From positions 18,640-82,639 of IMG/VR virus record IMGVR_UViG_3300042402_003259: 64,000 nucleotides of DNA; one strand, 5' to 3'. Of the stretch, positions 1-9,604 are shown piece after piece (position 1 is the first letter of the stretch; each line of letters starts with the position of its first letter). A program made the translations under genes and the position numbers. Under the pieces are notes generated by a model. It was not told where the DNA came from and made no database searches. It worked only from the letters and a program-made list of their open reading frames with translations. This DNA comes from a virus.

Positions 1-184
1 TTAGCTTGCCTCGGCGTTGGGTTGTCTCTTGACTAGAAGGTTTCGACTTTTATTAATGTGAGTTTGAAACCTACAAATATCTGACTTCTCACTACCGCAC
101 TAGTGCTGCTTTTCATCAAGAAACGAGCCGTTCACCGAATTTACACCATACTCATACACAATTTCTCATGTATGGACCCTTAAG
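1..184 (-). ncRNA. Group I intron (IC3/Azoarcus-like), 5' part only, in a probable tRNA-Leu
   Basis: Minus strand: P1 hairpin GGACU^CUUAAGGGUCC with U.G wobble at the splice site; P element AAAUUCGGUGAA (131-142); Q element CAACGCCGAGG (9-19); truncated by window start. Confidence 0.85.
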
Positions 185-217
185 AGTCCGCTATGTCTGC
201 CATTTCATCATCGCGCC
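185..217 (-). tRNA. 5' exon (to U33) of intron-containing tRNA, probably tRNA-Leu
   Basis: GGCGCGA-TG-ATG-AAATGGCAGA-CAT-A-GCGGA-CT; D-arm of Leu (type II) style; anticodon lies outside the window. Confidence 0.75.
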
Positions 218-237
218 AAAATTTAAAGAACACGCAC

Positions 238-356: not shown

Positions 357-432
357 TGGTAGTCCCGGTGGGATTTTCGCCCACAGTCAATCCCTTATAA
401 AGAGAACGCTTTTGATGTTAAGCTACGGGACC
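357..432 (-). tRNA. trnI: tRNA-Ile(UAU), atypical D and T loops
   Basis: Acceptor GGTCCCG/CGGGACT, anticodon loop TT-TAT-AA, encoded CCA; D-loop lacks GG, T-loop GCGAAAA. Confidence 0.75.
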
Positions 433-456: not shown

Positions 457-529
457 TGGGCCGTGCTGGACTTGAACCAGCAACCGACGAATTATGAGTT
501 CGCTGCACAAACCATTATGCTAACGGCCC
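457..529 (-). tRNA. tRNA(CAU), probably Ile2 (lysidine type)
   Basis: GCGAA-CT-CAT-AA-TTCGT; T-arm GCTGGTTCAAGTCCAGC as in bacterial Ile2; no encoded CCA. Confidence 0.8.
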
Positions 530-564
530 ATAGAAACTACTACATATTAAATTTTAAAGAACGA

Positions 565-634
565 AAAGAGTAAAGTATAATTCCAATTATGTTTCAGAAT
601 ATATTACCGAATGACAAACATATTCTTACTCTTT
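565..634. ncRNA. Putative small structured RNA in tRNA array
   Basis: AAAGAGTAA/TTACTCTTT closing stem with two internal hairpins; tRNA-sized but not a cloverleaf. Confidence 0.35.
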
Positions 635-646
635 ACTCAAATTAAA

Positions 647-717
647 TAAGCAGCGGGAAACGTATTTCCATCTATCATAAATAACACACATTATAATGAT
701 AGTGACTTCACTGCTTA
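647..717. ncRNA. Putative three-way-junction RNA in tRNA array
   Basis: TAAGCAG/CTGCTTA closing stem, GGAAA-4nt-TTTCC hairpin, CTATCAT/ATGATAG stem; follows the same leader motif as the tRNAs. Confidence 0.45.
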
Positions 718-740
718 AAATTTAAAAGAACTGAAAAAAA

Positions 741-1325
741 TGGTGCAATCGGCGGGGAACGATCCCGCGACTCACAGATTAAACCTACCACTATAGTTTT
801 CACTACCAGTAGAATGTTGTTACATAATTGATTGAATACTAATTACCAATTACTAAACTTCATTGGATACAGATTTCTCCCTACTACTGTTTGTGGTCTG
901 GACTATGCCTTTATCATAATTAGCTGTCAGGGGTTCCTCTCTTGCGAGTTTAGCTTACCCGACGATTCTCATGCCTTTACCGTGCTAATTTTAGATAGGT
1001 GATTATAGTCTCTACACGTTTTTTATTATGAGGCTATAGAATTTATCACAATTAAGTGGCTAGACGGGTAGCCTAGCAATCATGGTAGGTCACTATTGCG
1101 CCTATTTACCCACAATCCTTTCTTCTATTATTTCTCTAGCGTTTGCCTAAAACTTCGCTCGGCGTTGGGGGCATATATTTACATATTGCAGATTCTTTTG
1201 AAATCTGTCATTGCTACCCGTTCACCGAATTTACACCTTACTCATGCACAGTTTCCTATACATGGACCCTTGTTATCTTGCGATAACATCAAGTCTGTTG
1301 CTCTACCAACTGAGCTACGATTGCA
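741..1325 (-). tRNA. trnK: tRNA-Lys(UUU) split by group I intron (exons 1292-1325 and 741-783)
   Basis: Joined exons give TGCAATCGTAGCTCAGTTGGTAGAGCA-ACAGA-CT^TTT-AA-TCTGT-GAGTCGCGGGATCGTTCCCCGCCGATTGCA-CCA. Confidence 0.92.
784..1291 (-). ncRNA. Group I self-splicing intron, 508 nt, no ORF
   Basis: P AAAUUCGGUGAA (1221-1232), Q CAACGCCGAGC (1157-1167), R GUGUAGAGACU (1007-1017), S AAGGCAUAGUCC (900-911), P3 AGGUG/CACCU, IGS GGUC pairing exon GACU, terminal G at 784. Confidence 0.92.
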
Positions 1326-5882: not shown

Positions 5883-6186
5883 ACATTGATATCAGTTTTT
5901 CGAGTTCATCACAGACAGTTTTGATATCCGCAGTTATCTGTGCTGGAACAATTCCAGCTTCAGTCATAGTGCGTTCATCTTTTCCCGTGCGCCAATCGTT
6001 GAATGCGCGAAGGCGTTCTATAGCTTTTTCAATCATGATTTGTAGATACGGTAATGACGTTGACAGTTATACCTGCTTTGCCGTCATATTTAGCACCATA
6101 ATGACGCTTAGATTCCAGAAAGTCAAGGAGATCTTTTTGAATTTTTTCAGCGTCTTCACGACTAAAACCTTTTGGAAGATTTAAAG

Positions 6187-6736: not shown

Positions 6737-7075
6737 TCATTTCCAAATCACTTGAAGTGTAACTATAATACCGCACAGACATAATAATGTCAACGTTTTT
6801 AAACTTAATTTTTCACCAAAATGAAAAGAAGTTAAAAACGTAAATAATATGATGCCTATCGTAAAAGTTAATATTCTATTAGGCCAAATCAAACCATTAA
6901 AATGTTCATTAATTAATTTGATGGCGCGAATAGATATTAGTGTAGTTGGTACGCTAATAAATATTAGATAGTATTCATACTTCTTGAACCATTCAGATAA
7001 GAATTGTCCATGAATCTGATACCATCCAATAACATAAACTAAACTAAGAAGTAATATTGCTAAAAATAATTTCAT
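6737..7075 (-). CDS. Small 4-TM membrane protein (DMT/SMR-like)
   Basis: Four hydrophobic segments, FGEKLS before last helix. Confidence 0.55.
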   Translation of the reverse strand: MKLFLAILLLSLVYVIGWYQIHGQFLSEWFKKYEYYLIFISVPTTLISIRAIKLINEHFNGLIWPNRILTFTIGIILFTFLTSFHFGEKLSLKTLTLLCLCGIIVTLQVIWK

Positions 7076-7744
7076 TTAGATCCACAAAATATCCATGTGT
7101 TCTACAAATAATTGTAAACCTTGTGTCTTACGTTCGTTGTATTGCTCGCATTTCTTCATGTATTCATCCCAAGCTACTTTTTCTTCAATAGTTTTTTCTC
7201 TATTAAAGTAGTTTTTATCTTTAAGATCCCATTTAGTTGATGACTCTGGAAAAGGTAAATACTTATCAGGATCAATAATATAATCAAAAGCAAAAATAAT
7301 TTCATCCATGATGCGATCAATTTCTTTTTCAGCGATTTTTTCTGCTTTTCGCTGATCTTCTTCTGACAAAGAAGTATAGTCGTTAGGCAAAAATTTCATT
7401 GGAATACCCATTTTGCCTATCTTCTTGAGATATTGCAGACGAGGAACAATAAATTTAGCAATATTAGTTTCTAAAGAAAAAACATCATCATCAGAAACTC
7501 CATAACGAAACTTCTGATACTTACACTTTGCCCACCAACGCAATTCACACCAATTATGTTTGAAGCCCCATCCAAGTCGATAAGGCAGAAGATCAATAAG
7601 TTTGTCTACATATTTATTATATGTATAATAATTATTATCTTCTGGAAACAACTTATTTAATTCAGCTTCTTGATCATGCCAATGTTTAAGGCGTTTTTCT
7701 TTTTGTTCTGGCGTTTCGAAATCAAATTCAGTTTGATAGCTCAT
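7076..7744 (-). CDS. Conserved phage hypothetical
   Basis: I.PRL..K..G.P, MDEIIFAF, GLQLF pattern. Confidence 0.65.
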   Translation of the reverse strand: MSYQTEFDFETPEQKEKRLKHWHDQEAELNKLFPEDNNYYTYNKYVDKLIDLLPYRLGWGFKHNWCELRWWAKCKYQKFRYGVSDDDVFSLETNIAKFIVPRLQYLKKIGKMGIPMKFLPNDYTSLSEEDQRKAEKIAEKEIDRIMDEIIFAFDYIIDPDKYLPFPESSTKWDLKDKNYFNREKTIEEKVAWDEYMKKCEQYNERKTQGLQLFVEHMDILWI

Positions 7745-8124: not shown

Positions 8125-8810
8125 AGTTCGAATGCGGCGATTGTATGCTCAAAAGGATTACCTTCAATATTCTTTACTAGACGCAACATCTCGGCGGCAA
8201 TTTCTCTAATCTCTTTTTGAGCGTCAGGCTTGTTACGCAAACTCAAGAAATGATAGAAAGAACGCCAATTAAACATAACATCAGCCTGAATTTGAGAGTT
8301 ATAAGTCTTGAAATAACGAGCAGATTCCTTGGCTCGCTTGCGACCAAGCACAGGCTCAAGATCCTTCAGAGCGGCATGATATAATCTGTTGCCAGCTTGC
8401 GTATACATTTCTAACACATCGGCCCAATTTTTGCCGGGAAAATTAAGTTGACTATTTACGTCAAGATTATTCGTGACTTCAATATTTTTCCAATCATCAG
8501 GAATCAAATACTTATCTTCTTTAATTTCTTTATAACGAGCGGATTCGCCATTAACAGATGTTCCAACTCGGTGTTTTATAATATGAATGTGACTAGCAAT
8601 ATCTGTATCAACTAAGAAGTGAAGAGAAGATTTTTCAAAAGGTGTGTGATGACCTGCATCAGCGAGCATTTTAAGAAGTTTAGGAATTCTATTAATCTTA
8701 TCTTCATTTAAATCTCTACTTGTAGAAGTCCAAGCTGAACAAGCATGAACTTGATCGCTACCGTAATAGCCAATTAACTGTACTTTATTATCATTCTTAT
8801 CGTTAATCAT
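8121..8810 (-). CDS. thyX: FAD-dependent thymidylate synthase
   Basis: GHHTPFE, KHR..SVNGESARY, ESAR, AQKEIR. Confidence 0.92.
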   Translation of the reverse strand: MINDKNDNKVQLIGYYGSDQVHACSAWTSTSRDLNEDKINRIPKLLKMLADAGHHTPFEKSSLHFLVDTDIASHIHIIKHRVGTSVNGESARYKEIKEDKYLIPDDWKNIEVTNNLDVNSQLNFPGKNWADVLEMYTQAGNRLYHAALKDLEPVLGRKRAKESARYFKTYNSQIQADVMFNWRSFYHFLSLRNKPDAQKEIREIAAEMLRLVKNIEGNPFEHTIAAFEL

Positions 8811-9604
8811 ATATCTAAAAATTTTTTAATTTCTAACTTACCGTTGCTGATAACTATATACTCATTTAGTCCATTGTCAATACAAAGATTATCGCAATCT
8901 GCTGGATTCAGATTGCCATCTAAATGATGAGGATTAACTCTACCATTTTTATGATAAGTGTGACCAACGATTTGTTTTAATCCTTCAATAGGCTGAAACT
9001 CTTGTTTGAAATCTAACCAAACAATTCCTCCACCTTTCTTAGGACCACCTCGGCTTCGGCCAGCAAAATAAAACCAATGATTTTGATCTGTCATTAAAGC
9101 AATGTTTGCGCGTTCTACTTCTTTCACAAGAAATAAACTGAGATCATCGTTATTTTTAACAGATGGATCTATGTAATCAGGAAATAATCCTGCATGAGTG
9201 CAAAGGATACCATCAACCCAAAAACGCCATTTAAATTTGTTAATGATGTTTTTGCGTTCAGATCCTAGCATTTCATCGATGGCAAAATACTTTCTATCTT
9301 CATAACCGCTACACATCGTATAATGATTATTAAATAGATAATGCAAATCATGATTACCAAAAAGAGTATAGTTATTTGGCGCAGATAGATATCGCATCAA
9401 ATAATCAGCGGTCTTTTTATAATCATCATTGTCATCCAAATAAAAACTATCAAACCAATCGCCAAGACAAATATTTATGTCCGCCGATTCGTGCTGAATA
9501 ATCTTATTGAACTTCTCAACGTTATTGTGAAGATCAGAAAGTATTACTATTTTCTTTTTGTGACTATCGAATGTCATTTCTAAATTGTGTTTTAAAAGGA
9601 TCAA
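8807..9604 (-). CDS. Calcineurin-like metallophosphoesterase
   Basis: SDLH, LGDWFD, GNHD, THAG, VGHT. Confidence 0.9.
   Translation of the reverse strand: MILLKHNLEMTFDSHKKKIVILSDLHNNVEKFNKIIQHESADINICLGDWFDSFYLDDNDDYKKTADYLMRYLSAPNNYTLFGNHDLHYLFNNHYTMCSGYEDRKYFAIDEMLGSERKNIINKFKWRFWVDGILCTHAGLFPDYIDPSVKNNDDLSLFLVKEVERANIALMTDQNHWFYFAGRSRGGPKKGGGIVWLDFKQEFQPIEGLKQIVGHTYHKNGRVNPHHLDGNLNPADCDNLCIDNGLNEYIVISNGKLEIKKFLDI

Follow-up and report, generated by a model that had tools for sequence, protein, structure and literature searches.

An ORF-less group I intron between U33 and U34 of a tRNA-Lys(UUU) gene in a large uncultured freshwater phage

Phage group I introns such as those of T4 td, nrdB and others are linked to homing endonucleases and reside in protein-coding genes. 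According to part of the text of a 2014 review, all phage introns reported to that date were located in protein-coding genes, despite the many tRNA genes that phages carry (PMC3984707), and our full-text literature searches found no paper on group I introns in phage tRNA genes. For cellular genomes, a survey of bacteria and archaea distinguished 21 bacterial tRNA intron settings, 17 of them new, and noted that, in the intron database, the four classical bacterial tRNA types are all assigned to IC3 (Williams 2020, bioRxiv 10.1101/2020.01.27.920355). A Lys type at position 2 may already be among those settings. The intron described here is the same kind of element as the 17 new ones and was delimited by the same approach (ARAGORN with introns allowed, plus a rule of U at -1 and G at omega), but it is found in a phage. 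A close counterpart in insertion setting is the cyanobacterial tRNA-fMet intron ('fMet.2Ug' in Williams 2020), which likewise interrupts the anticodon loop after U33 ('position 2') with U at -1 and G at omega. An intron of the present family sits at exactly that site in a tRNA(CAU) gene of a related viral locus (L001), whereas the host gene in our case is a phage tRNA-Lys(UUU). The core is that of the cyanobacterial and plastid tRNA-Leu(UAA) intron ('Leu.3Ug'), although the phage intron lies one base earlier, differs in its guide pairing (GACU rather than ACUU) and is 2.5 times longer. The Azoarcus tRNA-Ile(CAU) intron (IC3, 'Ile2.5Ug') is also a group I intron of a tRNA anticodon loop, inserted after position 36 rather than after U33. 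Finally, endonuclease-bearing mobile group I introns hold a homing ORF, and the intron studied here has none.

The window, by which we mean the whole stretch of 64,000 nt that was analyzed, belongs to a large uncultured freshwater phage. Matches to phage families among its ORFs comprised rIIA, rIIB, a clamp loader, DNA polymerase, a DnaB-like helicase, ribonucleotide reductase and a virion protein, and its G+C content is 28%–39%. At least 0.95 of the sampled window words were present in 14 DNA runs labelled as lake-water or freshwater metagenome, of which 10 are possible sources and four come from four other studies. Among 50,697 phage records there was no match to the split gene (blastn, distant mode) or to window positions 1–25000 (megablast).

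The tRNA-Lys(UUU) gene of the window is interrupted by a real group I intron between U33 and U34 (Table 1). With introns allowed, ARAGORN called a tRNA-Lys(ttt) at c[741,1324] with 76 bases and a 508-nt intron at 33-34, bearing out the claim of a preliminary description of this DNA that a tRNA-Lys(UUU) is split at 33/34 by a 508-nt insert ending in G. The coordinates given there (741–1325) hold except for the start of the tRNA, which on the minus strand is 1324, one base less. Joined together, the exons yield a CCA-ended tRNA-Lys(UUU) of 76 nt with a clean cloverleaf and an ordinary anticodon loop (CUUUUAA), and G784 at omega is the sole split that gives a 7-nt loop with both U(-1) and G(omega). 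It had also been predicted that standard tRNA callers would pass over this gene, and it is indeed absent both from the default ARAGORN output (6 tRNA genes) and from the Rfam matches at gathering cut-offs (7 tRNA matches). Among viral contigs, no other copy of the window's exon 1/intron junction was found, and of 75 spliced tRNAs from intron-bearing genes, the most similar has 72% identity with that of the window. A search for an intron-less allele with the spliced-junction word returned four loci, all of them unrelated tRNAs sharing only the anticodon arm.

The T loop of this tRNA-Lys, encoded in exon 2, has the sequence AUCGUUC, in which positions 54 and 58 are A and U; the usual T loop is of the UUCGAAU type. 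The same kind of T loop occurs in an unrelated, uninterrupted viral tRNA-Lys (L138, about 5912–5990), which is one of the four loci found with the spliced-junction word and thus has the odd T loop in common as well.

Table 1. Features of the split tRNA-Lys(UUU) gene, its intron and the neighbouring intron, in window coordinates
Feature	Positions	Strand	Basis
Neighbouring paralogous intron: exon 1 at about 219-185 (ends at U33) and first 184 nt of intron	1..219	minus	
tRNA-Lys(UUU) exon 2, anticodon UUU to encoded CCA, 43 nt	741..783	minus	ARAGORN intron mode
Group I intron, 508 nt, without endonuclease ORF, omega-G at 784	784..1291	minus	ARAGORN, model R1, drawn pairs, ORF check, covariation
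P7 3' strand (906-901), P9 (896-893 with 788-791), P9 extension 892-807 (86 nt), P9a hairpin 806-793 (GAAA loop)	788..906	minus	drawn pairs, fold
P3 3' strand (1001-997) and P8 (996-994 with 913-915; 990-984 with 918-924), 59-nt extension with GCAA hairpin	913..1001	minus	drawn pairs, fold
P7 5' strand in R element, partner 901-906 in S element; pseudoknot, guanosine-site helix	1005..1010	minus	drawn pairs, covariation test
P6 (1158/1157-1156 with 1016/1017-1018) and 137-nt branched extension 1155-1019	1016..1158	minus	drawn pairs, fold
P4 (1229/1228-1223 with 1158/1159-1164) and P5 (1219-1217 with 1168-1170)	1158..1229	minus	drawn pairs, covariation
P5 extension, two hairpins, one with GUAA loop	1216-1171	minus	fold; comparison with L382
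P3 5' strand, partner 997-1001	1234..1238	minus	drawn pairs, covariation
P2 hairpin, 9 bp, GAAA loop	1243..1264	minus	drawn pairs; 9/9 pairs changed on both sides
P1, 5 bp: G30-A31-C32-U33 and intron U1 (1295-1291) with guide GGGUC (1269-1265), U33(1292).G1268 wobble	1265..1295	minus	drawn pairs, guide covariation
P1 extension hairpin, 7 bp, GCAA loop, enclosed by P1	1288-1271	minus	drawn pairs
tRNA-Lys(UUU) exon 1, tRNA positions 1-33, ends at U33, 33 nt	1292..1324	minus	ARAGORN intron mode; sequence

The P, Q, R and S core strings named in the preliminary description, which may resemble those of the Azoarcus IC3 intron, are exactly present at minus-strand positions 1232, 1167, 1015 and 911 and are identical in relatives. 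The check proposed there, an Infernal search with the Rfam group I model RF00028, turned out less favorably, as the intron scored 13.2 bits (E 1.0–1.4) and stayed below the curated cut-off of 50; the weak alignment covers the whole model (1–253), with the P, Q, R and S strings in register. We attribute the shortfall to the long inserts of this intron, since short relatives with the same core pass. Among nine loci searched, the cut-off was passed by four (L018, L002, L115 and L026, at 51.0–75.6 bits) and not reached by L007, L001, L019, L087 and L103. A covariance model spanning P3 to omega-G (R1), built from 36 short (178–219 nt), non-redundant relatives with the window excluded, matched the window at 784–1057 with 59.7 bits (E 7.9e-12) and at 1126–1233 with 17.6 bits, or 51.7 and 17.6 bits with filters off, the match being broken into two local pieces because of the long inserts. 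For the 36 relatives themselves, RNAalifold gives the textbook helices, with changes on both sides preserving 32 of 42 pairs.

Pairing in the window's own intron is consistent throughout, with 64 of 64 pairs standard in the core drawn by homology (P1, P1 extension, P2–P9 and P9a). Covariation was assessed in an alignment of 16 introns, all inserted after U33 (six in Lys, four in Leu, five in CAU and one in Arg tRNAs). The drawn structure, which derives from one of the 16 and is therefore somewhat favored by the test, pairs in 92.9% of cells compared with 31.7%–43.5% when slid by 1–3 columns. Changes on both sides were found in 25 of 44 pairs, P7 and P9 being invariant across the 16 introns and hence uninformative, and none of 500 shuffles reached any of five measures. 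Group I membership is thus beyond chance, given an R1 E value of 8e-12 and covariation far above the shuffled and slid controls, and the drawn pairs and covariation agree with the earlier claim of a group I intron that ends in G and forms a U.G wobble at U33. The group I core rules out an archaeal-type or group II intron. G1158 can be assigned to either P4 or P6, and no convincing P10 pairing was found between the first bases of exon 2 and the guide. The choice of splice site is explained by the pairing of the guide with anticodon-stem bases 30–33: exon base 31 and the guide form A-U in 12 introns and C-G in four, so that all 16 pair (the L386 row was read by eye).

The extra length of the window's intron consists of structured RNA inserts and holds no gene. 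Relative to the 287-nt Leu intron of L007, there are five inserts, located in P1 (the 7-bp GCAA hairpin), P5 (46 nt), P6 (137 nt), P8 (59 nt) and P9 (86 nt). The absence of a homing ORF noted in the preliminary description was confirmed: no ORF of at least 20 aa lies inside the intron on the sense strand, a minus-strand ORF at 708–803 overlaps only the last 20 bases of the intron and exon 2, and a Pfam search at E 0.01 assigned neither of the two longest antisense ORFs (95 and 56 aa) to a family. We considered whether the intron might hold the remains of an endonuclease gene and rejected this, as there is no ORF and the inserts fold as hairpins. Some of the inserts recur elsewhere. The P5 insert is identical (42/42) in another split tRNA-Lys (L382), and the P6 insert has identities of 99.3% with its counterpart in the tRNA(CAU) intron of L001 and 89.5% with that in L097, the L001 intron being only 72% similar to that of the window in its 5' part. 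These P5 and P6 inserts, common to introns of other loci, mark the introns as mosaics that exchange modules.

We consider it very probable that window 741–1324 (minus strand) is a tRNA-Lys(UUU) gene interrupted by a bacterial tRNA-type group I intron that comes from a mobile family and is most simply a passenger neutral for tRNA supply. Splicing, which we infer from the anatomy, would begin with the precursor folding into the standard P1–P9 core. An external guanosine would then attack after U33, held in the U.G wobble with the guide GGGUC, after which the terminal G784 would occupy the guanosine site and the exons would be joined into the 76-nt tRNA with its CUUUUAA loop. The intron is one member of a mobile family occupying many phage tRNA genes, and is most simply read as a selfish passenger. 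A related possibility is that this is a true group I intron that has lost the ability to splice unaided and whose folding needs a phage or host protein owing to its large peripheral domains. Long branched inserts in P6, P8 and P9 are in keeping with such a dependence, as is the energy of the fold constrained to the drawn pairs, which at -121.4 kcal/mol (P7 left unpaired) lies near the free minimum of -130.1 but 8.7 above it; the free minimum recovers P1, P2, P4 and P9a by itself. Nonetheless, four GNRA loops (P1 extension, P2, P8 extension and P9a) and the GUAA loop are placed as in self-folding introns, and no maturase-like ORF lies in or beside the intron, so we regard a protein requirement as unlikely.

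The tRNA array around the split gene has further features. A second, paralogous intron begins after U33 of a tRNA-Leu(UAA)-type exon and leaves the window at its start (Table 1); it scores 13.7 bits with model R1, its 3' end being missing from the window, and a full homologue in L007 (287 nt) scores 105.8 bits with the same model. At the corresponding place, a near-identical strain (L385) has an uninterrupted tRNA(UAA) of 76 nt. The tRNA at window 360–432 (minus strand) was matched by Rfam at 50.4 bits and missed by ARAGORN; its anticodon is UAU by eye (AUA-reading Ile type), and ARAGORN calls a tRNA-Ile(tat) at the matching place of L007. Nearly all tRNA genes of the array have a GTTCTTTAAA-like word in front of them (window 222–232, 1326–1340 and others; also L001 7500–7950), and a T run follows each CCA. 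These words and T runs may represent a repeated promoter or processing signal.

The intron belongs to a family that is found in many other viral tRNA genes. A search with the window's clamp-loader protein led to 17 related viral loci, three of which have the same four core strings in other split tRNA genes. The 14-nt S/P9 core word was found at no fewer than 120 viral loci, with R-like or P-like strings upstream of at least 100 core-word sites. When ARAGORN intron calls from 126 sites were filtered by the site rule (a preceding U, a final G and a loop of 7 nt), 76 sites were left with a single U(-1)/omega-G solution; of these, L028, L078, L090 and a 1287-nt call in L083 are doubtful. More than half of the solved sites (40 of 76) are UAA tRNAs split after U34, the 'Leu.3Ug' setting; they share the P, Q, R and S strings, and RF00028 is passed by some of them. 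The remainder include UCU after U34 (7/76), CAU after U33 (6/76), UAA after U33 (5/76), GUU after position 35 (3/76), UCU after U33 (2/76) and UGA after U34 (2/76), and single cases such as UUU after U33 (the window) and UUU after position 36 (L103).

Split tRNA-Lys genes were also sought by pattern. The pattern TAGTGGTANGTTTAA was too loose, with no true intron in 240 of its matching loci (120 viral, 120 genome contigs); a more specific pattern gave seven additional loci, one viral and six from metagenomes, in which tRNA-Lys(UUU) is interrupted after U33. Six of these seven are distinct and the other is L385, a strain that differs downstream and whose intron is 99.6% identical over 459 nt to that of the window. 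ARAGORN called the tRNA-Lys of L382, L386 and L387 with introns of 272, 358 and 390 nt, respectively; that of L388 received a wrong call, L383 is cut short and the 3' exon of L384 is broken. With RF00028, the introns of the other split tRNA-Lys genes all fail to reach E 0.01.

Several observations on these contigs are recorded here in their own right. In L386 (369–738, minus strand), a unit of about 27 nt, present in three tandem copies, makes up the P9 extension of the tRNA-Lys intron. On the contig of L382, a further weak RF00028 match (527–850, minus strand, 26.6 bits) may be another intron. Two intron-bearing viral contigs have tmRNA genes (L115 5175–5563, 126.4 bits; L087 9292–9692, 99.5 bits). 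In L097 (minus strand), the region from about 540 nt before to 200 nt after the core word holds an orphan Leu-type 5' exon and a full intron, followed by a complete uninterrupted tRNA-Leu(UAA), with no 3' exon. In L384 (3441–3900), a tRNA-Lys split at 33/34 has its 3' exon broken by an 8-base duplication, and about 90 nt further downstream there is a Lys-type anticodon arm with no interruption.

Contigs matching the intron were found in all three RNA-library runs (X15 at 889–1281 with no differences, X16 at 887–1271 and X17 at 900–1050), although RNA libraries can hold DNA and such contigs are not proof of transcription. The three runs had no depth at 523–696 and 1480–1827 and DNA run X2 covers 30 of 30 bins, in contig data that cannot rank depth. 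One contig of X15 leads from the S element of an intron, via a short P9 and the final G, directly to base 3 of the neighbouring Leu intron. This circle-like joint, present in one contig at depth 5 with a 27-nt side and not listed for X2, gives a hint, and only a hint, of a guanosine-mediated circle minus two bases. Other joints within the intron (807/808/809 to 885/887, 911 to 998, 918 to 990, 1017 to 1218 and 1020 to 1153) were considered as products of RNA processing and rejected, since they fit shorter relatives whose DNA occurs in the same lakes. The spliced tRNA-Lys joint (1292 to 783) was not among the contigs of four runs, in a type of data from which tRNAs are poorly recovered.

The missing spliced junction is one of several features that would be expected if the intron were a decayed, splicing-dead copy, with the tRNA-Lys a pseudogene and the ribozyme broken by its five large inserts. 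The Rfam cut-off is not reached, the intron measures 508 nt against about 200 nt in the relatives that pass RF00028, the T loop is unusual, and decayed relatives exist in L097 (orphan 5' exon and intron) and L384 (broken 3' exon). Nonetheless, we judge a dead copy to be very improbable. All core pairs are intact, the P, Q, R and S strings have not diverged from those of relatives, and the exons still form a clean cloverleaf. Moreover, every insert lies in the terminal loop of a helix, where group I introns tolerate insertions, those of P5 and P6 are found again in further introns, and a second strain retains the intron nearly unchanged.

The presence of the intron is optional among related phages. 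An uninterrupted tRNA-Lys(UUU) was found in seven of the 12 sibling loci scanned, and in two of them (L002 and L010) it occupies the window's slot between the same two tRNA-Met genes, with flanks 80%–92% identical. The intron-less tRNA-Lys of the siblings is only 50/76 to 54/80 identical (66%–68%) to the window's and reads GCCU rather than GACU at positions 30–33. Simple homing into a resident tRNA-Lys allele was rejected because of these differences in the tRNA compared with the similar flanks. A divergent tRNA within similar flanks suggests instead an exchange at the level of the gene, and from the sequences it seems that a whole tRNA-Lys gene with its intron replaced the resident one.

How the intron moves can be approached through its longer relatives. 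Among introns of at least 430 nt, nine of 19 have an ORF of at least 60 aa, and all seven ORFs scanned (from family members of 650–780 nt, leaving out a 61-aa ORF and a duplicate) belong to HNH endonuclease families. The tRNA array of L001 also has free-standing HNH genes at 6998–7498 (plus strand) and 8650–9312 (minus strand), with PHROG E values of 6.6e-25 and 3.6e-13, respectively. Within the window, no endonuclease gene was found beside the intron. Given HNH genes in longer members and free-standing ones in sibling tRNA arrays, we infer that the ORF-less copy probably spread in trans or via recombination of a whole cassette of tRNA and intron. A broader reading is that the introns of the U33 site form a generalist lineage that hops among phage tRNA isoacceptors (Lys, Leu, Met/Ile and Arg), swaps peripheral RNA modules by recombination and is moved in trans by the free-standing HNH endonucleases of the same arrays. 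The universal presence of U33, together with the option of adapting one guide base to position 31, would make such hopping feasible; we put this reading forward tentatively, as a possibility that is well short of probable.

It has been reported, in part of the text of PMC2610378, that PrrC cuts tRNA-Lys 5' of the wobble base, in agreement with the preliminary description, which had placed the PrrC site between positions 33 and 34. On this basis, the intron might be kept for protection, by hiding the 33/34 bond from PrrC-like nucleases, or might tie the supply of tRNA-Lys to GTP and Mg2+. The site of cleavage is the very bond at which the intron is inserted, and the 33/34 split of tRNA-Lys(UUU) recurs in seven further loci. 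However, the proposal of an anticodon-nuclease shield found no support, as the same family occupies 33/34 in Leu(UAA), CAU and Arg(UCU) tRNAs and sibling phages have a tRNA-Lys without the intron. The coincidence with the PrrC site needs no special explanation, given that the family uses the same bond elsewhere, that the intron is missing from siblings and that the tRNA-fMet intron classically lies at 33/34 (Williams 2020). Furthermore, the spliced tRNA would have an ordinary loop and be as cleavable as any other, and a non-exhaustive search of the window revealed no link to a nuclease or repair system. Selection for protection or regulation is therefore extremely unlikely, and a selfish passenger remains our preferred reading.

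The locus adds a member to a known kind of element and reveals no new mechanism. Together with more than 100 related viral sites, it shows that introns are commonly housed in phage tRNA genes, as opposed to the picture given in that part of the 2014 review (PMC3984707). As both the Rfam group I model and standard tRNA callers miss the gene, tRNA inventories of uncultured phages are incomplete where such introns occur, and arguments on codon usage or recoding built on these inventories are affected likewise. The family also offers a natural series of one core from 185 nt to 508 nt, with exchangeable inserts and a guide covarying with the tRNA stem, which makes it suitable material for asking how peripheral domains are accommodated and exchanged in group I ribozymes. 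If the U33-site introns do form a generalist lineage, phage tRNA arrays would constitute a large overlooked reservoir of active ribozymes, and excised intron RNA would persist as circles in lake communities.
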